DNA of 64,000 bases, taken from assembly GCA_015063725.1 (NCBI GenBank), contig SVTP01000003.1, positions 23,194 to 87,193 on the forward strand, in the 5' to 3' direction. This document shows positions 18,507-33,962 of this stretch, one piece after another. The notes under the pieces are model-generated. The model did not search any database. It was not told the origin of the DNA and saw nothing but the letters and a program-made list of their open reading frames with translations. This stretch comes from Oscillospiraceae bacterium. Lineage in GTDB: Bacteria; Bacillota; Clostridia; Oscillospirales; CAG-272. The stretch's first letter is position 1. Every line of letters starts with the position of its first letter. A program made the translations under genes and the position numbers.

Positions 18507-19319
18507 TTACATTTTATAAATTCTCACAGCATTCTCGGAAAGAATCATTGTGCGTTCTTCGTCGGTCAATTTGAGCTTCATAAAAGTTTCAAGCTCGACC
18601 TCGGGAGACCACATCGGAAAATCGCTACCGAACATGACGCGCTCCGCACCGTAGCGGTGAATCAGTCTCTCGCCAAGGGCGAGATCGTTCCCTGCAAACG
18701 GAAAGGTTGAGGAACAATCGACGTATAGGTTTGGAATATCGCAAAGCTCGCGCGAGGCATCGTCCCACACCGACCATCCGCCAAAATGCGCGCCAATGAC
18801 TGTCAATTTTGGAAACGCTTTGAGCACAGGCAAAAGGCGGTTGGGATTGGAATAATCGTAACGATGGTCACCTGTGTGCATCAGGACAGCAAGCCCTTCA
18901 CTCTCGCACAGTTCATACACGCGCATCATACGAGGGTCATCAATGGCAAACCCTTGAATATCAGGGTGAATTTTGATGCCGTGAAGTCCCAATGCTTTGA
19001 TCTCTGCAATAACGGCATCCTGATCTTCACAATCGGGATGCGCCGCGCCAAGTCCCGTAAAACGGTCGGGCGCCTTTGCCACCTCGGCGGCAATAAAGTG
19101 ATTGATGCTGGAGACCTGCTTGGGCGTGGTTGCCACAGATTGCACCACAAAACGGTCGATGCCAACGCGGTCGCCAATCTCCAAAAGCTCGGCGGCAACG
19201 CCACGGCAGGCGGCGTGGGTGGAATAAAACGCATCCGTCCCCGCAACCGCTCTGTCTACAATCTTTTCGGGATAGATATGACAATGCGCGTCAATAACCT
19301 GAAATTTGTTCTCTATCAT
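18507..19319 (-). CDS. amidohydrolase-2 (PF04909-like) TIM-barrel metal hydrolase/decarboxylase family protein
   Basis: 270 aa with an N-terminal IDAHCHIYP metal motif, HTGD and GSDFP. Confidence 0.75.
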   Translation of the reverse strand: MIENKFQVIDAHCHIYPEKIVDRAVAGTDAFYSTHAACRGVAAELLEIGDRVGIDRFVVQSVATTPKQVSSINHFIAAEVAKAPDRFTGLGAAHPDCEDQDAVIAEIKALGLHGIKIHPDIQGFAIDDPRMMRVYELCESEGLAVLMHTGDHRYDYSNPNRLLPVLKAFPKLTVIGAHFGGWSVWDDASRELCDIPNLYVDCSSTFPFAGNDLALGERLIHRYGAERVMFGSDFPMWSPEVELETFMKLKLTDEERTMILSENAVRIYKM

Positions 19320-19325
19320 TTTGTA

Positions 19326-21833
19326 TCATCCTTTTTTCAGTCCCAGCTTTTCAACGGCATCCTCGCGCATTTTGTACTTGAGGATCTTGCCTGCGGCATT
19401 CATTGGGAACTTGTCAACAAAATCAACGTATCTGGGCACCTTGTGGCGCGCCATACTTGCGGCTACAAAGTCTTTCATCTCCTGCTCGGTCATGCTCTCG
19501 CCATCTTTGAGGATGATACAAGCCATAATTTCCTCACCGTATTTTTCGTCGGGAACGCCGATGACCTGCACGTCGCTGACCTTGGGACAGGTGTAGATAA
19601 ATTCTTCGATCTCTTTGGGATAAATGTTTTCACCGCCGCGAATGATCATATCCTTGAGGCGCCCCGTAATGCGGTAGTTGCCGTCATCATCACGGCAAGC
19701 AAGGTCTCCTGTGTGGAGCCAACCGTCGGCATCAATGGCAGACGCGGTCGCCTGCGGCATTTTGTAATATCCCTTCATAATGTTGTATCCACGCGCCACA
19801 AACTCACCGTTGACACCGTTGGGACAGTCCTCGCCCGTTTCGGGATCGATGATCTTGCACTCAACGTTTGCAAAAACACTGCCTACGGTTTCGGTGCGGA
19901 CCTCCAACGAGTCATAATAGGAGCTCATCGTGCATCCGGGAGAGGCTTCGGTCTGACCGTAAACCGAGACGATCTCTTTCATATTCATAACCTCGGTTGC
20001 CTTTTTCATCAGGTCGGCAGGACAGTTGGAGCCTGCCATAATACCGATGCGCATATAGGAGAAATCGGTTGCGGCAAAGTCGGGATGCTCCATCATTGCA
20101 ATGAACATGGTGGGCACGCCGTTAAAGGCGGTGATGTGCTCGTTGTGCACGCAAGCCAGCGCGGGCTTGGGTGAAAAGTACGGCAGCGGCATCATGGTAG
20201 CGCCGTGCGTCATCGATGCGGTCATTGAAAGAACCATACCAAAGCAGTGGAACATGGGAACTTGGATCATCATGCGGTCAGCGGTGGAAAGGTCCATATG
20301 GTCGCCAATGTATTTGCCGTTGTTGACGACGTTGTAGTGTGTCAGCATAACGCCCTTGGGAAATCCAGTAGTGCCCGAGGTGTATTGCATGTTGCAAACG
20401 TCATCCTTATTGACAGCGGCTGCCATGCGGTAGACCTCGCTGACGGGTACCTGTGCGGCACGCTCAACGGCTTCATTCCAATCCATACATCCCTTTTGTC
20501 TGAAGCCAACGGTAATAACGTTGCGCAAAAACGGCAGGCGCTTGCTATGCAGAGCAGCGCCCGGCTTGAGCCTTGCCAATTCGGGGCAAAGCTCGGCAAT
20601 GATCTTGCCGTAGTGCGTATCCTTGGATCCCTCGGTCAAAATCAGGGTGTGTGTGTCGGATTGCTTGAGCAGATATTCTGCCTCGTGAATTTTATAAGCG
20701 GTATTGACAGTGACAAGCACGGCACCGAGCTTTACGGTTGCCCAAAAAGCAATGTACCATTGCGGCACGTTGGATGCCCAAACGGCGACATGGGAGCCTG
20801 CCTTGACGCCCAGCGCGATCAGGGAGCGCGCAAATTCGTCTACGTCATCGCGGAATTCGCTATACGTGCGCGTATAGTCGAGCGTGGTGTATTTGAAAGC
20901 GTATTGATCGGGAAATTCCTCGACCATGCGGTCAAGCACCTGCGAGAAGGTTGCATCGATCAAGAGATCCTTCTTCCAAACATACTTACCCGTATGTGCG
21001 CGGTTGTAATACAAGGTCTTTTCATTGCGTGAGGGATCGCTGAACTGGCTCATAAAGCCGACAAACTGCGAGAAGATGATCTCCATATCATCAAGCTCCT
21101 CACACCAGGCGGGATCCCAGACAAGGGAGAGGAAGCCGTCATAGTTGACGGAGCGCAAAGCAAGCATCATATCCTTGATAGGCAATTCTCCCTCACCAAG
21201 CAGACAGTATTCAATGCTATCCCCTGCTCTTTTTGCATCGTTGATATGCACGTGGCGAACGTACGCACCAAGATTTTTGATGATCTGCTCGGGACTCTCT
21301 CCTCCCTCAAAATATGCAGCGGAAAGATTCCAAAGAGATGCAAAGTAATCACTGGCAAAGCTATCCAACATCGCGCGTAGCTTTTCGGTCTTTGCAAAAA
21401 GTCCTGCCGTCTCCATCAAAAGCGAAATGCCGCGGCTCTCTGCCTCGGGCAGGAGTTCTGCAATCACTGCCTCTGTGTTGGTAAGTGCACTCTCCTCGTC
21501 CTCTGCGGCATTGGCGCGAATGCGAATGTTGGGGATATGCAAATTGGATGCGATCTCCATGCACTTGCGAATTTCGGCAATGCAGGCATCCTTTTCGTTC
21601 TTGTCAGACGGATTGCAGATGGCATCGATGCACGGAATGCGCAGCTTCTTTTCGTAGAGACGGCGAATGGTGGATGCGGCGGCGTAATTATAGAAGGCAC
21701 CGTCTTTATCAGCAAACAGGCTGTTTTTTATGTTGTGAAGCTCAATGCCCCCAAAGCCCATTGCCGTGGCGATGTCGCAAAAATCTTCAAAGGTGTGGCC
21801 GTGCCAGCCCTTTGTTGAAAAGGAAAATTTCAT
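19326..21833 (-). CDS. fusion protein: xylose-isomerase-like TIM barrel + AMP-forming acyl-CoA ligase
   Basis: 835 aa. The first roughly 270 aa resemble sugar-phosphate isomerase/epimerase TIM barrels (GFGGIELHN, HVHINDA). The remainder is an adenylate-forming ligase (YTSGTTGFPKGVMLTH, YGQTE, TGDLACRDDDGNYRITGRLKDMIIRGGENIYP). Confidence 0.8.
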   Translation of the reverse strand: MKFSFSTKGWHGHTFEDFCDIATAMGFGGIELHNIKNSLFADKDGAFYNYAAASTIRRLYEKKLRIPCIDAICNPSDKNEKDACIAEIRKCMEIASNLHIPNIRIRANAAEDEESALTNTEAVIAELLPEAESRGISLLMETAGLFAKTEKLRAMLDSFASDYFASLWNLSAAYFEGGESPEQIIKNLGAYVRHVHINDAKRAGDSIEYCLLGEGELPIKDMMLALRSVNYDGFLSLVWDPAWCEELDDMEIIFSQFVGFMSQFSDPSRNEKTLYYNRAHTGKYVWKKDLLIDATFSQVLDRMVEEFPDQYAFKYTTLDYTRTYSEFRDDVDEFARSLIALGVKAGSHVAVWASNVPQWYIAFWATVKLGAVLVTVNTAYKIHEAEYLLKQSDTHTLILTEGSKDTHYGKIIAELCPELARLKPGAALHSKRLPFLRNVITVGFRQKGCMDWNEAVERAAQVPVSEVYRMAAAVNKDDVCNMQYTSGTTGFPKGVMLTHYNVVNNGKYIGDHMDLSTADRMMIQVPMFHCFGMVLSMTASMTHGATMMPLPYFSPKPALACVHNEHITAFNGVPTMFIAMMEHPDFAATDFSYMRIGIMAGSNCPADLMKKATEVMNMKEIVSVYGQTEASPGCTMSSYYDSLEVRTETVGSVFANVECKIIDPETGEDCPNGVNGEFVARGYNIMKGYYKMPQATASAIDADGWLHTGDLACRDDDGNYRITGRLKDMIIRGGENIYPKEIEEFIYTCPKVSDVQVIGVPDEKYGEEIMACIILKDGESMTEQEMKDFVAASMARHKVPRYVDFVDKFPMNAAGKILKYKMREDAVEKLGLKKG

Positions 21834-23215
21834 TGCGCGGCCTCCTCGTAAACGATCTTGTTAACGGCGTTGATATAGGCACGGATGCCTGCACCGATGA
21901 TGTCGGTGGAAATACCGTTGCCCGAATAGAGCTTTCCGTCGGAGCGAAGCTTAACGAGCGCCGAGCCCATAGCTTCTGTACCCTCGGTAACGGCTTGGAT
22001 CTGGAAATCATCCAACTCATAACGGTAGCCGATGATCTGCTCGATGGCAGAAAATGCGGCATCAATTGGACCGTCGCCAATGCAAATGCCCGTCAGATCC
22101 TTTCCGTCCTTGCGCAGCGTGATCTGCGCACTTGTGGAAATGATATTGCCGCTGTTGACAACGTAATTGACAAGCTCATACGTGGGCGGAACCTGCAATG
22201 CCACGCTTGCAACGATGGCTTCCAGCTCCTTTGCCCCTACCTTCTTTTTGGCGGCTACGCGTAAAAATTCTTGATAAACAAGAGATTTATCTTCTTCGGA
22301 AAGATCGTACCCCAGCTTTGCAACGGCTGTAGCTACGGTGTCCTTATCGTCGTTGGCATCCAGATGGATGGGTTCGTCGTCGGGAGTGGCAGAAGTGATG
22401 CTTCCCTTTGCGCTCTTGACGTTATCCAGCACCCAGCCGATCTGCTTTACCGTACGATGAAGCTCGGTATAGCGGATATCGGAATAAAAGCCGTAGCGGT
22501 TGCCGCAATTTTTGACCATGGCGGCAAAGCTCTCAAGCGAAACACCTGCCTCGCCTACGGCTGTTTTAACACCCGATGCGCCTGCGCGGATCGCCATAAT
22601 AGCATTCGCACAAGCCATACTGTTTTGATTGGAACAACGAACGTTGACGGGAACGTTGATATTCTCGGCAATCTTCTTCACGAAATCTGCAAAATCATCG
22701 GGGAGCATTTCTCCTGCATCATCGCAAAGAGTAACCTCACAAGCACCTGCCGCAATAGCGGTGTTGATAACAGAAGCAAGGAATGCAGGCTCTGCACGGG
22801 AAGCATCCAAAGCGCAAAACTCAACCGAGGAGCACTGCTCTTTTGCAAAGGTGACGATCTTCTCTACCCATGCAATCATCTTATCGGGCTTTTTGTGGCA
22901 AACGTACTCCATGCTGACAGGAGAGGTGGGCAGCTCAATGCGAATGCGCGGATAGAGTGCGGTAGAAAGTGCCGCTTTTGCATTTTCGACGCTCTCAACC
23001 GTCATACCTGCCGCCACGGAGATGGTGCTCTTTTTAACAAAGGTCGAAATCGTTTTGATCAGCAGTGTATCAATGCGCACGTTTTGAATTTCGGGCAGCT
23101 CGATAATGTCCCCATCCAGCTTTTCAAGCTGACGGGCGATATCGATCTTTTCTTTAAAGCTAAAGGCATTGTCTGCTCGGCAAAGCGTAGCGTCTGCAAT
23201 TCTGATTCTTTTCAT
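21830..23215 (-). CDS. 2-isopropylmalate synthase homolog with degenerate catalytic motifs
   Basis: 461 aa with a DRE-TIM-like N-terminal half and a LeuA-type C-terminal regulatory domain (GDGPIDAAFSAIEQI, IQAVTEGTEAMG, GISTDIIGAGIRAY). The TLRDGEQ motif is replaced by TLCRADN, and HxH(D) by RCSNQ. Confidence 0.8.
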   Translation of the reverse strand: MKRIRIADATLCRADNAFSFKEKIDIARQLEKLDGDIIELPEIQNVRIDTLLIKTISTFVKKSTISVAAGMTVESVENAKAALSTALYPRIRIELPTSPVSMEYVCHKKPDKMIAWVEKIVTFAKEQCSSVEFCALDASRAEPAFLASVINTAIAAGACEVTLCDDAGEMLPDDFADFVKKIAENINVPVNVRCSNQNSMACANAIMAIRAGASGVKTAVGEAGVSLESFAAMVKNCGNRYGFYSDIRYTELHRTVKQIGWVLDNVKSAKGSITSATPDDEPIHLDANDDKDTVATAVAKLGYDLSEEDKSLVYQEFLRVAAKKKVGAKELEAIVASVALQVPPTYELVNYVVNSGNIISTSAQITLRKDGKDLTGICIGDGPIDAAFSAIEQIIGYRYELDDFQIQAVTEGTEAMGSALVKLRSDGKLYSGNGISTDIIGAGIRAYINAVNKIVYEEAAQ

Positions 23216-23255
23216 GGTTTCAAATCTCCTCTTCCATCATTTCCGCCCCGATAAA

Positions 23256-23530
23256 TCAAAAGTCCCCGAGACGGATGCATAATCCACCTCGGGGACGAAT
23301 GTTCTCATTCGCGGTACCACCCCGGTTACCGAACAAGTCGGTCACCTCAAAGGCTCAGGCAAGCCCTATGCTATGATAACGGTGCATGCCGTGACCGCTT
23401 ACTAAAGGTTCTGCGGTCCTGCTCCGGAACGAGACTTTCTTCTCTTTCGGTAACGGCTCACACCAAGCGCCGCCTCTCTGAAACCGATATGGGAGAAAAA
23501 ATAATTCCTTCAACGCATTTCAAAAAAATA
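23256..23530 (-). promoter_or_regulatory. T-box riboswitch leader, specifier read as CUC (Leu)
   Basis: On the minus strand: a K-turn (GUUGAA/GGA), an AGAGAG bulge, a CGGC-GCUUGGUGUGA-GCCG distal loop, the T-box core CCGGGGUGGUACCGCG (23310-23325) and a terminator GUCCCCGAG...CUCGGGGAC+UUUU (23258-23297). The specifier CUC-G lies at 23430-23433. Confidence 0.8.
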
Positions 23531-23565: not shown

Positions 23566-23587
23566 GGTTTTTTTGAAATTTTTTCAA

Positions 23588-24658
23588 TTATTTTTCAATG
23601 GGATATGTCCAGCCGTAAGTGTCCTCGATTTTGCCCCATTGAATGCCTGTCAAGGTATCGTACAGATGTTGGGTAACGGTACCGATCTTGCCACCGTTAA
23701 CGGGATATTGTACGCCCTTGTAGCAAAGCTCGCCAATGGGAGAGACAACTGCAGCAGTTCCGCAGCCCCATGCTTCCTCAAGTGTGCCATTTTCAAGCGC
23801 TTCGGAAAGCTCACCGATAGAGAGCAGACGCTCGCTGACCTTGTAGCCCTCGCCCTTGAGAACCTCGATGCAGGATTTGCGCGTGATACCGGGCAGAATG
23901 GAGCCGGTCAGAGCGGGCGTGACGATCTCGCCGTTGATCTTGAACATAACGTTCATAGCGCCGACTTCTTCGATATACTTGCGTTCCACACCGTCAAGCC
24001 ACAAAACCTGAGAGTATCCCTTTTGTGCGGCTCTCTCACCGGCTCTGTTACTTGCGGCATAGTTACCGCCGCATTTTGCATAACCTGTACCGCCTCTGAC
24101 AGCACGAACATCCTCGTCCTCGATCATGATGCGAACGGGATTGATGCCCTCTTTGTAGTAGCTTCCTACGGGAGAAGCGATGATAACAAAGGTTGCGTTG
24201 TGAACTGCGTGAACACCCAAGGTCTCATCGTTTCCAAACAGGAACGGACGCAGATAAAGCGAGGTTCCGGGAGCGGACGGTGTCCAGTCCTGCTCCATTT
24301 CCACAAAGGTCAAAAGAGCCTGAAGCATATCTTCCTCGGGCATTTGCGGCAGGCACAAACGCTCGGCAGAGTTGTTCATGCGGCGAATGTTCTCCAAAGG
24401 GCGGAAGAGCTGAACCTTGCCGTCGGCACGGCGGTAAGCTTTCAGTCCTTCAAAGATCTCGGAGCCATAGTGCAGAACGGTGGATGCAGGATGGAGAGAA
24501 ATGTTTGCAAAAGGCACGATGCGCGCATTGTGCCAACCCATCTCGTGGGAATAGTCCGCCATAAACATATGGTCGGTAAAGATCTTGCCAAAGCCAAGCG
24601 TAGAAGGATCCGGCTTTGCCTTGGGAGCATCACATTTTGTAATGGAAATATTGAGCAT
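23588..24658 (-). CDS. ilvE: branched-chain amino acid aminotransferase
   Basis: 356 aa with FGKIFTDHMF, ASTVLHYGSEIFEGLKAYR, the PLP-Lys context, GTGYAKCGGNYA and PGITRKS. Confidence 0.9.
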   Translation of the reverse strand: MLNISITKCDAPKAKPDPSTLGFGKIFTDHMFMADYSHEMGWHNARIVPFANISLHPASTVLHYGSEIFEGLKAYRRADGKVQLFRPLENIRRMNNSAERLCLPQMPEEDMLQALLTFVEMEQDWTPSAPGTSLYLRPFLFGNDETLGVHAVHNATFVIIASPVGSYYKEGINPVRIMIEDEDVRAVRGGTGYAKCGGNYAASNRAGERAAQKGYSQVLWLDGVERKYIEEVGAMNVMFKINGEIVTPALTGSILPGITRKSCIEVLKGEGYKVSERLLSIGELSEALENGTLEEAWGCGTAAVVSPIGELCYKGVQYPVNGGKIGTVTQHLYDTLTGIQWGKIEDTYGWTYPIEK

Positions 24659-27287: not shown

Positions 27288-27950
27288 TTACTGAATCTTT
27301 TTTTGCAGTTCAAGTGGGAAAAGATCAGGAATCTTCCCTTCCAGCTCACACTGCAGTTTTTGGTCTGCCGTTGTCATAACGACGGGCAAGCCCGACATAG
27401 CCGCCACCTCGTTGGCATAGGATACCGACCGAAGCACGTCCTCGGCAGTGGTCTCCACTCCGAGATTGGAGTTGTTGACCAATGCGGTAAATCGCATACC
27501 GCACGCGGTCTCGATCTCACGCATTACCTCAAGGGTGGATATCGCATCGCGCGTTAAGGGGCGGTAGCAGTTGATCACCATCAGCATTTCGTAATCATTC
27601 TCCGCCAAAATAGCGGGAGCGAGTCTGCCAAGCACCAAAGCACCGCGGTCGTCACCGCCCACGTCGATGATGGCGCGCATGCGGCGGTCATCGGTCAGGG
27701 CGTAGAGGTCGGGCGGAAGTGCGGGAATATCGACGTTGCTGTTTGCATAGTTGGAGCAAATGAGTCGAATGCCCGCCTCTTCCAGCTCGGCGGCACTGTC
27801 CTTGGAACGAAAATAAGGATTGACGATGTCAAGGTCGGCAAGCGTTACGGTTGGGTATTCCCTCTTGATGGCTTGTGCCAGATTGACGGCAATGTTGGTT
27901 TTGCCGCTGCCGTAATGTCCGCACAAGAGCAAAACGCGTTTGTTCATCAT
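27288..27950 (-). CDS. P-loop NTPase of unknown role (MinD/CooC/GPN-like layout)
   Basis: 220 aa with a deviant Walker A (LLCGHYGSGKTN), LADLDIVNPYF and a Walker-B-like IIDVGGDD. Its start overlaps the ligase stop as ATGA. Confidence 0.6.
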   Translation of the reverse strand: MMNKRVLLLCGHYGSGKTNIAVNLAQAIKREYPTVTLADLDIVNPYFRSKDSAAELEEAGIRLICSNYANSNVDIPALPPDLYALTDDRRMRAIIDVGGDDRGALVLGRLAPAILAENDYEMLMVINCYRPLTRDAISTLEVMREIETACGMRFTALVNNSNLGVETTAEDVLRSVSYANEVAAMSGLPVVMTTADQKLQCELEGKIPDLFPLELQKKIQ

Positions 27951-30235
27951 AGCTTGTTCCTCTGAATTTTTCCGCTTGTTGTCTTGGGCAATTCATCGCA
28001 GAAGACCACAAGACGGGGGTATTTGTAGGGAGCGGTGTGCTCCTTAACGTAGGTTTGAATTTCTTTTTTGAGTTCCTCTGTGGGTTCTGTTCCCTTGGTA
28101 AGAACAATGGATGCCTTGACGATCTGTCCTCTTACCTCATCGGGAGCGGCGGAAACGCCGCACTCAAGAACGTAAGGCAGCTCCATAATAACGCTCTCAA
28201 TTTCAAAGGGACCAATGCGGTAGCCCGAGGACTTGATGACGTCATCGGCACGTCCTACGTACCAATAGAAGCCGTCCTCATCGCGCCAAGCAACGTCGCC
28301 GGTGTGGTAGTAACCGTCGTGCCAGACCTCTGCGGTCTTTTCCGCGTCGCGATAGTAGCCTGTAAAGAGTCCGCAAGGCGCTCCGTTTTTGACGTTGACA
28401 ACGATCTCACCGCTCTCACCAACAGAAACGGGATTGCCGTCGGCGTCCACAAGAGAAACATCATAAATCGGTGCGGGCTTACCCATAGAGCCGATCTTAT
28501 GCGGTGCACCGATCATATTACCGATGATCATGGTGCTCTCGGTCTGTCCAAAGCCTTCGAGAATTTGCAGTCCCGTTGCCTTTTCAAACTGGCGGTAGAC
28601 CTCGGGGTTGAGTGCTTCGCCCGCCGTTGTCATGTGCTTGACGGAAGAAAGATCGTATTTGGAAATGTCTTGCTTGATCATCATGCGCAGCATTGTGGGC
28701 GGCGCGCAGAAGGTTGTGATGTTGTATTTTGCAAACATCGGCAAGATCTCGGCAGCATCAAAGCGGTCAAAGTCGTAAACAAAGGTTGCCGCCTCACACA
28801 GCCACTGACCGTAGAGCTTTCCCCACATTGCCTTTGCCCAGCCCGTATCCGAGATGGTAAAATGTAAGCCGTTGGGATCGGCATTGTGCCAATATTTTGC
28901 GGTATGGAAGTGTCCGAGTGCGTACTTGTAATTGTGCGCCGCGATCTTGGGGTATCCTGTGGTTCCCGAAGTAAAGAACATCAGCATCAGATCGTCACCG
29001 CCGGGTGCATCCTCGCCTCGGTTGTAGTGCGAGCTGTAAAGCGTGTATTCTTCATCAAAGCTTCTCCAGCCCTCTCTTGTGCCGCCAACGATCAAGAAAT
29101 TCTTGAGCTCGGGACAGGTTTTTGCTGCGAGTTCGATTTGATGTGCGGTGTTGCCATCGGCAGTACAAAGAACCGTATTGATGCCTGCGGCTTGGAAGCG
29201 GTATTCAAAGTCATGCTCCTGCAACTGATTGGGAGCGGGGATGGCAATAGCACCAAGCTTGTTCAAGCCAAGCATAGCAAACCAGAACTGATAGTGGCGC
29301 TTGAGAACGAGCATGACGCGATCGCCCTTTTTGATGCCCAGCGACTTGAAATAGTTGGCACACTGTGCCGATGCTTTTTTGATATCCTTAAAGGTAAATC
29401 TTCGCTCGGTCTTATCCCCTGCAATGTGCAGCATTGCCAGCTTTTGCGGTTCTTTATCGGCAAGAGCATCCACAAGATCGAATGCAAAGTTAAAGTTTTC
29501 GATATTTTTAAATTGGATGGATGTAGGAGTTCCGTTTTCGTCTTCTTCAACGTCAATAAACTGTTGATAGATGCGCTCCTTGGTATCCTTTTGAATGGTG
29601 GCAGTTCCCCGCACGAGCTTTGCGGGCGTCAATTCGGGAATGGGCTCACCCGTAGGATTGAGCACGATCGCATAGAATTCGCAATCCTGACCGTCAACGG
29701 CAATCATACCGTGCGGAGCGCTACTGTCATAATAGATGCTGTCGCCTGCGCGCAGAACCTCTTTGTGCGAGCCGACCTGCACCATCAGGCTACCCGAGAT
29801 GACGATGTCGATCTCCTGACCTGCGTGTGTAGTCAGCTCGATATCCTTGTGTAGTGCTTCTTCGTTGTATTCACTGCGAACAAGCAAGGGCTCGGCAATT
29901 CGGTTTTGGAACGCGTATGCCAGGTTGTAGTAGGTCATGCCGTGTGCCTGCTCAATACGCTGTCCCGCGCCGTTTCGAGTGACCGTGTAGGACTTGAGCT
30001 TGGGGCTGACACCGTCGATGATGTCGGTAACGTTGACGCCAAAAGCCAATGCACAACGGTAGATAAACGCAAAGTTGAGGTCACTCTGCCCGTTTTCGCA
30101 CGCCAAGTATTCTTCAATCGTAACGTCGGTTTTTGCCGCCATCTCCTCGGGAGTATAGCGTGTAATTTCGCGCAACTCTCGAATACGCTCTGCCATCTCT
30201 CGGATCTTGAAATCCAATCCGCTCATTTGTTTCAT
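27947..30235 (-). CDS. HTH(XRE)-cupin fused to an AMP-forming short/medium-chain acyl-CoA synthetase (paralog B)
   Basis: 762 aa from the ATG at 30235, with a GGAGAG RBS. The N-terminus has an HTH (ITRYTPEEMAAKTDVTIEEY) and a cupin (HAGQEIDIVISG...HGM). The ligase part carries FFTSGTTGYPK, GFGQTE, TGDVAWRDEDGFYWYVGRADDVIKSSGYRIGPFE and SGKIQR. The ORF-track start at 30328 lies inside the T-box core and is rejected. Confidence 0.85.
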   Translation of the reverse strand: MKQMSGLDFKIREMAERIRELREITRYTPEEMAAKTDVTIEEYLACENGQSDLNFAFIYRCALAFGVNVTDIIDGVSPKLKSYTVTRNGAGQRIEQAHGMTYYNLAYAFQNRIAEPLLVRSEYNEEALHKDIELTTHAGQEIDIVISGSLMVQVGSHKEVLRAGDSIYYDSSAPHGMIAVDGQDCEFYAIVLNPTGEPIPELTPAKLVRGTATIQKDTKERIYQQFIDVEEDENGTPTSIQFKNIENFNFAFDLVDALADKEPQKLAMLHIAGDKTERRFTFKDIKKASAQCANYFKSLGIKKGDRVMLVLKRHYQFWFAMLGLNKLGAIAIPAPNQLQEHDFEYRFQAAGINTVLCTADGNTAHQIELAAKTCPELKNFLIVGGTREGWRSFDEEYTLYSSHYNRGEDAPGGDDLMLMFFTSGTTGYPKIAAHNYKYALGHFHTAKYWHNADPNGLHFTISDTGWAKAMWGKLYGQWLCEAATFVYDFDRFDAAEILPMFAKYNITTFCAPPTMLRMMIKQDISKYDLSSVKHMTTAGEALNPEVYRQFEKATGLQILEGFGQTESTMIIGNMIGAPHKIGSMGKPAPIYDVSLVDADGNPVSVGESGEIVVNVKNGAPCGLFTGYYRDAEKTAEVWHDGYYHTGDVAWRDEDGFYWYVGRADDVIKSSGYRIGPFEIESVIMELPYVLECGVSAAPDEVRGQIVKASIVLTKGTEPTEELKKEIQTYVKEHTAPYKYPRLVVFCDELPKTTSGKIQRNKL

Positions 30236-30263: not shown

Positions 30264-30540
30264 CAAAAATGCACTCGTCCCAAGCGAAAATAACCTTGAG
30301 ACGAGTGCAATAACACCCGCGGTACCACTCAAATTGCGACAAAGTCGCCACTCTTGGAGCCTGACAGCTCCTATGCATTAACGCAGCAATCACGGAAGGG
30401 TTCTACTGGAGCGTGCTCGTTCTTCCCTTCGGCTCGGAAGCTACAAATGCCGGTAAAGTCCAATGGCTTGCACCAAACGCCATCTCTCTGCAAAGACCTG
30501 TTTCCAACATCCTCTTCGTCAGTGCCTTTCTAAATTATAA
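30264..30540 (-). promoter_or_regulatory. T-box riboswitch leader, specifier read as GUA (Val)
   Basis: Stem I has a K-turn (CUGAC/CGA), a GAAG/CUUC lower helix, an AGAGAG bulge and an AUGGC-GUUUGGUGCAA-GCCAU distal loop. The T-box core is AAUUUGAGUGGUACCGCGGG (30316-30335) and the terminator is GCACUCGUC...GACGAGUGC+AUUUUUG (30264-30308). The specifier GUA-G lies at 30441-30444. Confidence 0.8.
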
Positions 30541-30543
30541 AGT

Positions 30544-30572
30544 ATTGTATCACACTTTTGGTTATTTGTCAA
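30544..30572 (-). promoter_or_regulatory. sigma-A promoter of the Val T-box operon
   Basis: TTGACA (30567-30572), a 17-nt spacer, then TACAAT (30544-30549). Confidence 0.6.
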
Positions 30573-30611
30573 TAGATTTTATAATATTTCCAATATTATA
30601 TATTGGCAATA

Positions 30612-32879
30612 TCAAAGTTTATTTCTCTGAATCTTGCCGCTGATGGTTTTGGGCAGTTCATCGCGGAAAACAACCACGCGGGGGTATTTGTAGGGCGCGG
30701 TATGCTCTTTGACATAAGTTTGAATCTCTTTTTTGAGCTCTTCGGTGGGTTCTGTTCCCTTTGTAAGAACAATAGACGCCTTGACAATCTGTCCTCTGAC
30801 CTCGTCGGGCATAGCGGATACACCGCACTCGAGAACGTAAGGCAGCTCCATAATAACGCTTTCGATCTCAAAGGGACCGATGCGGTAGCCGGAGGACTTG
30901 ATAACGTCATCTACGCGACCAACGTACCAATAGAAACCGTCCTCATCGCGCCAAGCGGTGTCACCCGTATGATACATACCGTCATGCCAAACCTCGGCGG
31001 TCTTTTCTTCGTTCTTGTAGTATCCCGCAAAGAGTCCGCAAGGAACCTTTTTGTCGGTACGGACAACGATCTCACCAACCTCACCAACCGCTACGGGATT
31101 GCCGTCGGGATCAACGATATCAACGTCATAAAGCGGAATAGGCTTACCCATGGAGCCGAGCTTGTGCGTGCCGCCAATCAGATTTGCAATGGTGAGCGTC
31201 AGCTCGGTCTGCCCAAAGCCTTCCATGATCTGTAGTCCCGTTGCCTTTTCAAACTGACGGTAAACCTCGGGGTTGAGTGCTTCGCCCGCGGTGGTCATAT
31301 GCTTGATGGAAGAAAGATCGTATTTGGAGATGTCTTCCTTGATCATCATGCGCAGCATCGTGGGGGGCGCACAGAAGGTGGTGATATTGTATTTTGCAAA
31401 CATGGGAAGGATATCCGCTGCCGAGAAGCGGTCAAAGTCATAGGTAAAGACCGCGCCCTCACACAGCCACTGACCGTAGAGCTTGCCCCAAAGTGCCTTG
31501 CCCCATCCTGTTTCGGAAATGGTAAAGTGGAGACTGCCGTCACTGACGCCGTGCCAATGCTTGGCGGTAACAAAGTGACCGAGCGGATATTTGTAGGTAT
31601 GCGCTGCAATTTTGGGATACCCTGTGGTTCCCGATGTAAAGAACATCAACATCAGATCGTCACCACAGGGGGTGTCATCAGTACGATAGAAGTGCGTGCT
31701 GTAAAGACCGAATTCCTCGTCAAAGTCTCTCCAGCCGTCGCGCTTGCCGCCAACGAGAACCTTGGTGGTGAGCACCGGGCACTTCTGTTGTGCAAGGTCA
31801 ACCTGATGGGCAACATCACCGTCGGCTGTGCAGATGATCGCACTAACGTCGGCTGCTTCAAAGCGGTATTCAAAGTCATGCGCCTGCAGCTGATTGGTCG
31901 CGGGAATAACGATAGCACCCAGCTTGTGCAAGCCGAGAATTGCGAACCAGAACTGATAGTGGCGCTTGAGAACGAGCATGACACGGTCGCCCTTTTTGAT
32001 GCCCATGGATTTGAAATAGTTTGCGCACTGTGCCGAGGCGCGTTTCATATCGTTAAAGGTAAAGCGACGCTCGGTCTTATCGTTTGCAATGTGGATCATG
32101 GCAAGCTTGTCGGGTTCCTTTTGTGCAATGGCATCCACAACATCAAAGCCAAAGTTGAATTTGTCCTCATCGTGGAAATCGATGGACTGCAACAGACCGT
32201 TTTCGTCCTCGACTGTGGAGATAAAACGGTCGCAGACCAACTCTCTCTTTGGGGTACGCATGGGGATCAGTGTATCTCTGATCACGTCCTCTTTTTCGTT
32301 CTCACCGGGCAAAACAACTGCCACAAATAGGCAATCCTCGCCATCGATTGCGATCATACCGTGAGGGGTGGAGCTGTTGTAATAAATACTGTCACCCTCA
32401 CCGAGATACTCGACGTTATCGCCAACCTGCACCTTGAGCTTGCCTTTGAGTACCATGTCAAACTCCTGCCCGGAGTGCTTTGTCAGGTGGATGGGACGGT
32501 TTTGCAGATCGGGGTTATATTCGTAGCGAACCCAATAGGGCTCAGCCAGCTTTTTGCGGAACATGGGGGCTAAGTTGGAAATCTCAATGCCATCCTCTTT
32601 TGCCGTTTGCTGTCCCTGACCACGGCGCGTGACCGTGTAGGACGAAAGATGCGCACTGCGGCCTTCCAAAAGGTCGGTCATGCCAATGCCAAACGCCTGC
32701 GCACATTTATAAATAAAGGTAAACGGAAAATCCAACTCACCGCTTTCATACCTGCAGTACTCGGCAACCGATACCTCGGTCTTCTCTGCCATGGTTTCAA
32801 CGCTGAAATCAAAAATTTCACGCATTTCGCGAATTCGAAGCGCAACCTCCTGCAAAGTGTTAGATGATAAGTTCGACAT
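30612..32879 (-). CDS. HTH(XRE)-cupin fused to an AMP-forming short/medium-chain acyl-CoA synthetase (paralog A)
   Basis: 755 aa from the ATG at 32879, with an AGGAGG RBS. It has the same architecture as 27947-30235, and the ligase half is nearly identical (FFTSGTTGYPKIAAH, ILPMFAKYNITTFCAPPTMLRMMIK, GYRIGPFEIESVIMELPYVLECGVSA). The ORF-track start at 32963 lies inside the T-box and is rejected. Confidence 0.85.
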   Translation of the reverse strand: MSNLSSNTLQEVALRIREMREIFDFSVETMAEKTEVSVAEYCRYESGELDFPFTFIYKCAQAFGIGMTDLLEGRSAHLSSYTVTRRGQGQQTAKEDGIEISNLAPMFRKKLAEPYWVRYEYNPDLQNRPIHLTKHSGQEFDMVLKGKLKVQVGDNVEYLGEGDSIYYNSSTPHGMIAIDGEDCLFVAVVLPGENEKEDVIRDTLIPMRTPKRELVCDRFISTVEDENGLLQSIDFHDEDKFNFGFDVVDAIAQKEPDKLAMIHIANDKTERRFTFNDMKRASAQCANYFKSMGIKKGDRVMLVLKRHYQFWFAILGLHKLGAIVIPATNQLQAHDFEYRFEAADVSAIICTADGDVAHQVDLAQQKCPVLTTKVLVGGKRDGWRDFDEEFGLYSTHFYRTDDTPCGDDLMLMFFTSGTTGYPKIAAHTYKYPLGHFVTAKHWHGVSDGSLHFTISETGWGKALWGKLYGQWLCEGAVFTYDFDRFSAADILPMFAKYNITTFCAPPTMLRMMIKEDISKYDLSSIKHMTTAGEALNPEVYRQFEKATGLQIMEGFGQTELTLTIANLIGGTHKLGSMGKPIPLYDVDIVDPDGNPVAVGEVGEIVVRTDKKVPCGLFAGYYKNEEKTAEVWHDGMYHTGDTAWRDEDGFYWYVGRVDDVIKSSGYRIGPFEIESVIMELPYVLECGVSAMPDEVRGQIVKASIVLTKGTEPTEELKKEIQTYVKEHTAPYKYPRVVVFRDELPKTISGKIQRNKL

Positions 32880-32895: not shown

Positions 32896-33170
32896 TCAAA
32901 AAATAAAACACCCGTCTCAATTCTTTGAGACGGGTGTGAAAATACACTCGCGGTACCACTCAAATTGCGACATTGTCGCCACTCTTGGAATCAAACAATT
33001 CCTATGCCTTGACGCAGCAATCACGGGAAATTCTACTTGAACACAGTCTTTCGAACATCCGGCTCGGAAGTGATGGGTCTTGAGTAACTTTGTCATCGGT
33101 TCACACCAACACCGACTCTCTGCGGGCATCCTTATTCGACCTTCTTCGTCATCGCCTTTTTCAAATTACG
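32896..33170 (-). promoter_or_regulatory. T-box riboswitch leader, specifier read as AUC (Ile)
   Basis: Stem I reads GGC-GAUGAC-GAAG...CUUC-CGA-GCC, with an AGAGAG bulge and a GUCGGU-GUUGGUGUGA-ACCGAU distal loop. The T-box core is AAUUUGAGUGGUACCGCG (32948-32965) and the terminator is ACACCCGUCUC...GAGACGGGUGU+UUUAUUUUUU (32896-32937). The specifier AUC-A lies at 33071-33074. Confidence 0.8.
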
Positions 33171-33173
33171 TGT

Positions 33174-33202
33174 AGTATACCACACAAAAAAGTGTTTGTC
33201 AA
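33174..33202 (-). promoter_or_regulatory. sigma-A promoter of the Ile T-box unit
   Basis: TTGACA (33197-33202), a 17-nt spacer, then TATACT (33174-33179). Confidence 0.6.
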
Positions 33203-33230
33203 TAGTTTTTTTAAAACTTTTTTCAAAAAA

Positions 33231-33962
33231 TCAATCGCAGTTTTCCCAGTTGTGGTAAACGTCCATAACGTCGTCATCCTCTTCGAGCTTTTCAATCAGA
33301 AGATTCATAAATTTGATGTCATCTTCGCTCTCAAGAGTAACGGACGTGGAAGCCTGCTTGGTCTTGTCGGCAGAGAGAATCTCATAGCCTGCGGCTCTGA
33401 GATCTTCCTGAATGTTGTAAACGTCATCGGGCTCGGTGGTGATGATGAAAACGTCACCCTCTGCCTTGAAATCTGCTGCGCCTGCCTCAAGTGCTTGCTC
33501 CATCAGTTTATCCTCGTCAACGTCGCCGTCCTCGTTGTTGATAACGATCTCGCCAACGTCGGTGAAGAGGTATCCAACGCAACCTGTCTGACCCATGTTG
33601 CCGTGGTATTTGGAGAAGTAGGAACGCACGTTACCCGCGGTACGGTTGCGGTTGTCGGTGGTAGCGGTTACCAGGACGGCAACGCCTGCGGGACCGTAGC
33701 CCTCGTAGGAAACCTCTTCGTAGCTTTCACCGCCGCCGCCAAGTGCTTTTTTGATGCAACGCTCGATGTTATCGTTGGGAACGTTGTTTGCCTTTGCCTT
33801 TTGGATCAGGTCGCGCAGCTTGGAGTTGTTGTTGGGATCTCCGCCGCCCTCTTTTACGGCGATGGTGATCTCTTTGCCGATCTTGGTAAAGATCTTACCC
33901 TTTGCGGCATCGGTTTTTTCTTTTTTGTGCTTGATATTCGCCCATTTGCTATGTCCGGACAT
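33231..33962 (-). CDS. yebC: YebC/PmpR-family transcriptional regulator
   Basis: MSGHSKWANIKHKKEKTDAAKGKIFTK...NNVPNDNIERCIKKA. Confidence 0.9.
   Translation of the reverse strand: MSGHSKWANIKHKKEKTDAAKGKIFTKIGKEITIAVKEGGGDPNNNSKLRDLIQKAKANNVPNDNIERCIKKALGGGGESYEEVSYEGYGPAGVAVLVTATTDNRNRTAGNVRSYFSKYHGNMGQTGCVGYLFTDVGEIVINNEDGDVDEDKLMEQALEAGAADFKAEGDVFIITTEPDDVYNIQEDLRAAGYEILSADKTKQASTSVTLESEDDIKFMNLLIEKLEEDDDVMDVYHNWENCD

Follow-up and report, generated by a model that had tools for sequence, protein, structure and literature searches.

An XRE-cupin head on paired acyl-CoA synthetases of gut and rumen Clostridia: a possible sensor of the enzyme rather than a reader of DNA

The window analysed here is a stretch of 64,000 nucleotides on contig SVTP01000003.1 of an Oscillospiraceae bacterium. 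Its minus strand carries two paralogous genes, for ligases A and B, each of which joins an XRE-type helix-turn-helix (HTH) domain, a cupin barrel, a linker and an AMP-forming acyl-CoA synthetase in one polypeptide. Our subject is the N-terminal HTH-cupin module, hereafter the head. The best explanation of its presence, to which we give an even chance, is that the head serves the synthetase as a sensor or regulatory module at the level of the protein, acting on the enzyme and not on DNA. The architecture is conserved in many genomes, with relatives in which the head is a separate gene. The HTH domain is acidic, no operator is conserved at the promoters of the two genes, and the residues that tell the two paralogs apart are concentrated in the head.

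The arrangement we envisage is as follows. A complete XRE-cupin module of 200 residues would have been taken over as an accessory that forms part of the synthetase chain. The cupin barrel would bind a metabolite with a branch-specific alkyl group, sec-butyl for ligase A and isopropyl for ligase B, at a site where His135, Glu139 and His173 probably hold a metal involved in binding. As ligand the end product (Ile for A, Val for B) or its 2-oxo acid would be likeliest, with the substrate acid the next candidate. Binding would shift the position of the head on the enzyme, or the state of oligomerisation, by way of a flexible linker of about 40 residues, and ligase activity would be tuned, most likely by feedback inhibition. 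The acidic helical domain might serve in oligomerisation or as a lid on the barrel, as the alpha domain of HppE does, whilst transcription would be controlled separately by Ile and Val T-boxes. Feedback by Ile, Val or their 2-oxo acids is the most economical guess because charging of the tRNA is already monitored by the T-box and both ATP and CoA are spent at the entry step. We infer that a ligand binds, what it is, that a metal is present and in which direction the effect runs. The narrower proposal, that a one-component regulator has given rise to an allosteric sensor which, assisted by a metal, reads Ile (A) or Val (B), or the 2-oxo acids, and shuts down its own ligase, is put forward only tentatively. 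By descent the head falls in the XRE-cupin/HppE superfamily; it probably works most like an allosteric sensor domain.

Architecture and distribution of the head

Ligase A, the Ile-type paralog of 755 amino acids (aa), occupies positions 30612-32879 on the minus strand. Its ATG (32879-32877) lies 8 nt downstream of an AGGAGG sequence and the frame is free of stops to 30612. Ligase B, the Val-type paralog of 762 aa, has the same architecture in one open frame that starts at 30235 and ends at 27947, also on the minus strand. The two share 69% identity over their whole length and about 51% over the head. An uninterrupted fused frame is present in 40 out of 40 orthologous genes from 20 other genomes, which rules out a frameshift or an error of assembly as the origin of the fusion. 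The initial annotation, made from the sequence alone, had described the two ligases as paralogs and had placed an XRE-HTH and cupin module at their N-termini (32280-32879 and 29636-30235), followed by a full adenylate-forming enzyme. Both sets of coordinates are upheld, Pfam gives the same order of domains, and the head peptides that had been quoted are present in the sequence.

Pfam HTH_19/HTH_3 models match residues 16-74 of both ligases. The HTH_19 score is 35.4 bits for ligase B (E 9.8e-9), over the curated cut-off of 30.2, and 25.8 bits for ligase A (E 1e-5), which is under it. In ligase A the XRE-type five-helix domain spans residues 12-75 (32655-32846, minus strand). The cupin barrel with its lead-in strands follows at residues 82-192 (32304-32636, minus strand), and Cupin_2 matches residues 135-189 over its cut-off in both proteins (E 1.4e-11 for A and 5.7e-11 for B). 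The head of ligase B comprises residues 1-200 (29636-30235, minus strand). An AlphaFold2 model of residues 1-200 of ligase A has a predicted local distance difference test (pLDDT) score of 84.4 and displays five helices (residues 6-23, 27-33, 38-45, 53-63 and 67-72) and then a beta-barrel. Residues 193-232 (32184-32303, minus strand) form a variable, probably flexible linker, with 35% identity among orthologs and low pLDDT; in the full-length model the score is below 50 over residues 193-210. No curated NCBIfam model covers the head, and our literature searches found no published description of the head-synthetase architecture.

The remainder of ligase A, residues 233-755 (30615-32183, minus strand), is a complete AMP-forming acyl-CoA synthetase. 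AMP-binding (PF00501) matches with E 1e-65 in ligase A and 8e-62 in ligase B, and AMP-binding_C (PF13193) with E about 1e-21 in both (3e-21 being quoted for one). The best relative in the PDB is 3ETC (E 2.4e-185 for residues 233-755), which we take to be MacS of M. acetivorans. Core motifs can be read in ligase A as FFTSGTTGYPK, GFGQTE, YHTGD, GRVDDVIKSSGYRIGPFEIE and PKTISGKIQR. The PKTISGK motif ends at Lys749, and the catalytic lysine and both ANL domains are present. MbcS is the best NCBIfam model for both ligases, with scores of 439.6 and 435.5 bits that lie under the equivalog cut-off of 850; the two are relatives of MbcS, not equivalogs. The enzyme part thus reads as an ordinary MacS/MbcS-like synthetase. 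It is in this part that MacS (3ETC) and S. aureus MbcS resemble the ligases, both being short/medium-chain synthetases with branched acids among their substrates. Activation of 2-methylbutyrate and isobutyrate has been reported for MbcS (PMC10026030) and use of 2-methylbutyrate for MacS (PMC10455477). Neither has an N-terminal head, their lengths being about 525-580 aa.

How widespread the architecture is, a question that the initial annotation had raised, was surveyed at several levels. A search with the head region gave 7174 protein clusters of a length that fits the fusion; the 120 best of these 7174 all have the same architecture and carry the NCBI name 'AMP-binding protein' only. In a sample of the family the head occurs in 93 of 151 genomes and 67 of 97 genera, most head-bearing genomes having two tandem copies with frames of 755-860 aa. 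Among GTDB species representatives, searched with fused sequences only, there are at least 598 such stretches. Their sources are metagenome-assembled genomes of gut and rumen origin that bear the labels Acutalibacteraceae, Oscillospiraceae, Ruminococcaceae or Eubacteriales.

A census of the enzyme part in the family sample separates three arrangements. Homologs with at least 60% identity are all fused (756-864 aa), save for frames cut by contig ends. At about 48-53% identity the module is a separate gene of 183-195 aa (11 loci) that ends 10-130 nt, mostly 15-25 nt, before the start codon of the synthetase, and a ribosome-binding site can be read in most cases. This split module gene is usually intra-operonic, placed after the gene for an oxidoreductase gamma subunit or a plsY-like gene; no T-box is present at the split module genes and a promoter of their own is usually absent too. 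In a third clade, with 53-56% identity to ligase A, there is no head module nearby, and catalysis is therefore independent of the module. Stand-alone homologs of the head, of about 185 aa, are found at 33-43% identity. In a tree of heads the A-type sequences form one branch (support 95/79) and the B-type another (99/94). The two group together (88/79), apart from the split and orphan forms, as would be expected if the fusion arose once and the entire cassette was then duplicated. That the module is repeatedly paired with the synthetase, and fused to it, indicates that the head is functionally tied to the synthetase protein.

Some of these loci deserve separate mention. The head-less clade is represented by loci L137-L140 (genomes G108, G017, G110 and G139), and L137-L139 adjoin another, more distantly related AMP-binding gene on the opposite strand. 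Four split pairs (L048, L049, L051 and L052 in G040, G072, G030 and G018) directly follow a PlsY-like gene and have no T-box. The upstream gene is presumably of that kind from its HR-x-NIKRL-type C-terminal ending. Their setting suggests lipid priming from branched acids instead of amino-acid salvage. Orphan homologs of the head (L042-L045 and L053 in G110, G108, G058, G140 and G017) are the closest unfused relatives, at 42-44% identity, and also have an acidic HTH and the His-Glu-His site. L042-L044 and L053 lie upstream of, or overlap, an rsmE-like gene that is followed by ftsE/ftsX-like genes, a conserved synteny; L045 is on a short contig where the next conserved gene alone is readable.

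The HTH domain and the search for an operator

Does the HTH domain bind DNA? The initial annotation had drawn a parallel with BirA and proposed autoregulation or another DNA-level layer of control, with a vestigial HTH as the alternative. The second idea can be set aside. Conservation was measured as amino-acid identity, synonymous sites being saturated at 60-70% identity. Among orthologs the HTH domain retains 60-64% identity, against 68-71% for the cupin, 70% for the N-domain of the enzyme and the low value already given for the linker; identities across four domains range over 60-87% and the HTH-to-cupin stretch has 71%. No loss of the HTH was seen among fused genes. The domain thus appears to be under selection, not decaying, and is best called repurposed.

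Its surface does not look like that of a DNA-binding domain. Net charge of the HTH is -2 to -9 in all 56 heads (fused, split and orphan). Within the genome the ligase heads, at -6 (A) and -5 (B), are the most acidic of 31 HTH_3 domains, those for which charge was computed out of 35 listed matches; the other 29 have a mean of -0.8 and a standard deviation of 2.1. The corresponding aligned regions of DNA-binding controls carry +2 (E. coli PuuR), +3 (1y9q), +1 (9k3w) and +2 (C.AhdI), whereas the alpha domain of HppE, which does not bind DNA, has a charge of -5.

The recognition helix, VSVAEYCRYESG in ligase A and VTIEEYLACENG in ligase B, departs from the helix usual in this genome. The latter follows the pattern S-x-Q-x-V-S-K-W-E-x-G, and the ligase heads follow S-x-x-E-Y-x-x-Y/C-E, with S-V-A-E-Y-C-R-Y-E-S-G in A compared to T-I-E-E-Y-L-A-C-E-N-G in B. 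At the base-contact positions the usual polar or basic residues are missing and conservation among orthologs is only 20-40%, in contrast to about 90% for the structural residues Tyr41, Glu45 and Gly47. The initial annotation had named loss of conserved recognition-helix residues across orthologs as a result that would speak against DNA binding, and this is what is observed: the contact positions are both non-canonical and variable. The polar or basic recognition helix on a neutral-to-basic HTH that marks XRE-cupin regulators is absent.

For the operator search 40 promoters, taken from 20 genomes, were brought into register at their -35 boxes. No palindrome is conserved in the spacer, in the 80 nt upstream or in the stretch from the -10 box to the T-box. 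Alignment and k-mer enrichment show that only the -35 and -10 boxes, A/T tracts and the start of the T-box are conserved. The own promoters of the ligases therefore lack a conserved operator of the XRE-cupin or BirA type. Two candidates were considered and rejected. A perfect inverted repeat, CCAATAT-ATA-ATATTGG, occupies 30590-30606, past the ligase A stop codon and ahead of the ligase B -35 box; none of the 20 orthologous promoters has it. The T-tract/A-tract TTTTTTcAAAAAA is palindromic and enriched, but appears to be a generic UP-like element. The same tract precedes the Leu promoter and more than 30 unrelated promoter-like sites in the genome. Those sites, with the tract just upstream of TTGACA and an extended -10 element (TGnTAnAAT), number more than 30 among 298 promoter-like sites, and examples in the window are at 33203-33235 and 23566-23590. 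The tract is common to strong promoters of the organism.

These observations bear on the possibility that the ligases are trigger enzymes in the sense of BirA, whose head would dimerise on an operator, either in the promoter of the ligase gene itself or elsewhere in the genome, and whose repression would be altered by a ligand or by the acyl-adenylate. Homology over the full length of the head speaks for this. A profile search with the head matches the HTH_3-cupin protein 1y9q (E 4.8e-13) and also SinR, the 434 repressor and C.AhdI, and there are the stand-alone homologs at 33-43% identity. The HTH fold is kept, and Arg15, Arg20 and Glu45 are invariant in the head alignments. Characterised XRE-cupin proteins act as local repressors, in the form of dimers bound to palindromes (PMC7901475). 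The XRE-cupin regulators (PuuR of E. coli, ErfA, PsdR and PauR of P. aeruginosa, and 1y9q) share with the heads the order of domains, the size and the H-x-G-x-E ... P-H cupin signature. They differ in that here the module is fused to, or tightly paired with, an enzyme, and in that the HTH is acidic (-5/-6 as opposed to +2/+3), with neither a polar or basic recognition helix nor a conserved operator. PuuR itself is very distant in the head tree, and its model scores the ligase heads at 21-25 bits against a cut-off of 211.

Comparison with BirA, NadR and PutA rests on the combination of an acyl-adenylate-forming enzyme with an N-terminal domain of DNA-binding fold. BirA has a winged helix, a defined operator and an adenylate that acts as co-repressor; for the ligases the operator search gave none, and the surface of the HTH seems ill suited to contact with DNA. 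An acyl-CoA synthetase of the ANL family with a reported second role as transcription regulator does exist, P. aeruginosa FadD1, although it has neither an HTH nor a cupin and its DNA binding is assigned to a leucine-zipper-like stretch within the AMP-binding domain (PMC12754631). The layout of the genes adds two further difficulties. The B promoter of many relatives begins 10-25 nt past the stop codon of gene A, which leaves scant room for an operator, and the split module genes usually sit inside operons and lack a promoter of their own. With the acidic charge, the variable recognition helix and the missing palindrome these lead us to regard a DNA-binding trigger enzyme as unlikely, and the BirA-like layer of the initial annotation is not borne out. 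Its other suggestion, that the cupin senses the acid or the amino acid, is retained as part of the explanation that we favour.

The cupin barrel and the function of the head

The cupin has a constant core. In ligase A the residues concerned, His135 (32475-32477), Glu139 (32463-32465) and His173 (32361-32363, all minus strand), correspond to His137, Glu141 and His175 of ligase B. Across 66 fused A- and B-type heads His135, Gly137, Gln138, Glu139, Asp141, Pro172 and His173 are invariant. When split and orphan forms are added His135, Gly137, Glu139, Pro172 and His173 remain so, Gln138 is at least 90% conserved and Asp141 is variable.

Profile alignment with HppE extends over residues 12-184 (E 4e-9, identity about 20%) and sets His135, Glu139 and His173 against HppE His138, Glu142 and His180, the Fe(II) ligands of that enzyme (PMC7916636). 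HppE is a homotetramer with a wholly helical alpha domain, a cupin beta domain and one Fe(II) per monomer (PMC7916636, PMC9088020). Foldseek ranks 1y9q first for the head and then HppE, Psf4, MPnS and HEPD, with E about 1e-12 to 1e-9; TM (template modelling) scores to these nearest folds reach only about 0.4-0.5, since the relative orientation of the two domains differs. HppE, HEPD, MPnS and Psf4 thus resemble the head in having a helical domain before a cupin with an aligned 2-His-1-Glu site, and HppE also in its acidic charge. They differ in that here there is no phosphonate context, identity is low and an adenylating enzyme is attached. Judged by their gene context the ligase heads are not HppE-type enzymes.

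We had considered the metal site as proof that the head is enzyme-like and no regulator, and dropped the argument. The H-x-G-x-E ... P-H signature of the ligase heads is also met in E. coli PuuR, a repressor, and therefore the His-Glu-His site is common to the XRE-cupin/HppE superfamily and not diagnostic of an enzyme. What remains in favour of a non-regulator head is accordingly the contrast in charge and in the recognition helix.

Where do the two paralogs differ? A site was counted as paralog-specific when it is conserved within the A-type, conserved within the B-type and different between them. Of 12 strict sites nine are in the head, with one in the linker, one in the enzyme (G460A), one outside the domain bins and none in the C-domain. 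It is thus the head, more than the catalytic domain, that marks a protein as belonging to one branch or the other. An alignment of 30 A-type and 36 B-type heads yields 22 paralog-specific sites. Several are hydrophobic exchanges in strands of the barrel or in those that lead into it (E95A, I98M, I100Y, Y115L, W116Y and Y119S), and two, P129D and H131E, are adjacent to the metal site. Ile98 and Ile100 would, to judge by the alignment, match the pocket strand of HppE; literature on the pocket residues gave nothing usable. The distribution of sites would suit a head that binds a small molecule peculiar to its branch.

The sole strict difference in the catalytic domain, at residue 460 of ligase A (31500-31502), falls in a TGW(G/A)K motif and is glycine in the A-type and alanine in the B-type. 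We presume that it aligns with an acyl-pocket position of acetyl-CoA synthetase, where a smaller residue would suit a larger acid.

Several points weigh against a head that senses metabolites on behalf of the enzyme. It is clearly homologous to XRE-cupin regulators and it keeps the canonical helix-1 arginine (Arg20) and the Ser/Thr that opens helix 3. Acidity of the HTH lowers the likelihood of DNA binding without making it impossible, and an operator could sit elsewhere in the genome or co-vary among species. The His-Glu-His site does not tell whether a protein is a sensor, an enzyme or a regulator. The paralog-specific residues might do no more than keep A and B from mixing in oligomers. There is no confident docking of the head on the enzyme in the full-length model, and the ligand, the metal and the protein contacts of the head are predictions.

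Two other functions were weighed. The head could be purely structural, an aid to oligomerisation or solubility that responds to no ligand, a fusion accident frozen in place since it became needed for assembly. The homotetramer that HppE builds from the same two types of domain makes this conceivable, and residues that insulate A from B oligomers would then account for the paralog-specific sites. However, mere assembly does not need the putative ligand site that is invariant in the 66 fused heads, and repeated pairing as a separate gene argues for a function of the head's own. We think it improbable. Least probable, by a little, is a second catalytic or substrate-capturing metal site in the cupin that modifies the branched acid or an intermediate, or passes it to the adenylation site: the alignment with the Fe(II) ligands of HppE, the mostly metalloenzyme nearest solved folds and the hydrophobic swaps in the barrel are in its favour, but the non-catalytic repressor PuuR has the same signature, the route from acid through acyl-CoA and 2-oxo acid to amino acid has no obvious gap (ligase, oxidoreductase and IlvE are all present), MbcS and MacS take such acids with chains too short for a head, and oxidative chemistry of the HppE type would be unlikely in a gut anaerobe.

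If the head is indeed a sensor of the synthetase, it would show how flux in the Acutalibacteraceae and Oscillospiraceae is controlled beyond the T-boxes, offer a handle for assigning substrates and effectors, and illustrate how a transcription-factor module can be reused to regulate an enzyme. On the narrower proposal each salvage branch would be controlled twice, through tRNA charging at the level of RNA and through a free metabolite at the level of the enzyme, and the ligases would be the first adenylate-forming enzymes described that have an XRE-cupin sensor as an integral part. Thousands of 'HTH' proteins of this architecture, together with stand-alone homologs of the same clade, may have been miscounted as DNA-binding regulators. 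Should the head bind DNA after all, it would define a new class of trigger enzyme in the ANL superfamily.

Gene context and predicted substrates

Each ligase gene is preceded by a T-box, as the initial annotation had recognised. Both leaders match Rfam RF00230 on the minus strand just under the gathering score of 93. That of ligase A (32923-33161, 89.2 bits, E 7e-19) has the specifier AUC (Ile) and that of ligase B (30294-30531, 85.8 bits, E 5.5e-18) has GUA (Val). The Val specifier (GTA) recurs in 19 of 20 orthologous B-type leaders, the Ile specifier (ATC) in 11 of 20 A-type leaders; the crude regular expression used gave unreadable or spurious results in the other nine. Promoters were read directly. 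For ligase A (33174-33202, minus strand) the boxes are TTGACA and TATACT with a spacing of 17 nt, and 19 of 20 relatives have the same type; for ligase B (30544-30572, minus strand) they are TTGACA and TACAAT with the same spacing, again a conserved type of promoter.

Ligase B is the first gene of an operon that continues with a P-loop protein, a four-subunit 2-oxoacid:ferredoxin oxidoreductase and IlvE, a class IV aminotransferase. No phosphonate genes occur near the ligases, where the neighbours are the P-loop protein, the oxidoreductase, IlvE and the T-boxes. The branched-acid substrates are predicted because of the Ile and Val specifiers, the oxidoreductase/IlvE operon and the relationship to MacS and MbcS. 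Ligase A would probably activate 2-methylbutyrate and ligase B isobutyrate, for reductive carboxylation to Ile and Val, respectively. The ligases thus appear to be the ATP-costing entry step by which gut and rumen Clostridia turn isoacids into Ile and Val. The role proposed here behind the T-boxes is amino-acid salvage, in contrast to the lipid priming associated with MbcS and MacS.

The P-loop protein (27288-27950, minus strand, 220 aa) has a weak match to CbiA/MinD/ParA (E 2e-4). The start of its gene overlaps the stop codon of ligase B and precedes the oxidoreductase genes, a position kept in the relatives L046 and L047.

A third T-box (23288-23522, minus strand, 122.5 bits) has the specifier CUC (Leu). 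Behind it (18507-23522, minus strand) are genes for a LeuA-like protein of 461 aa with HMGL-like and LeuA_dimer domains, an 835-aa fusion of a xylose-isomerase-like TIM barrel with another AMP-binding ligase, and an Amidohydro_2 protein. The ligase of the Leu branch therefore bears a different N-terminal addition.

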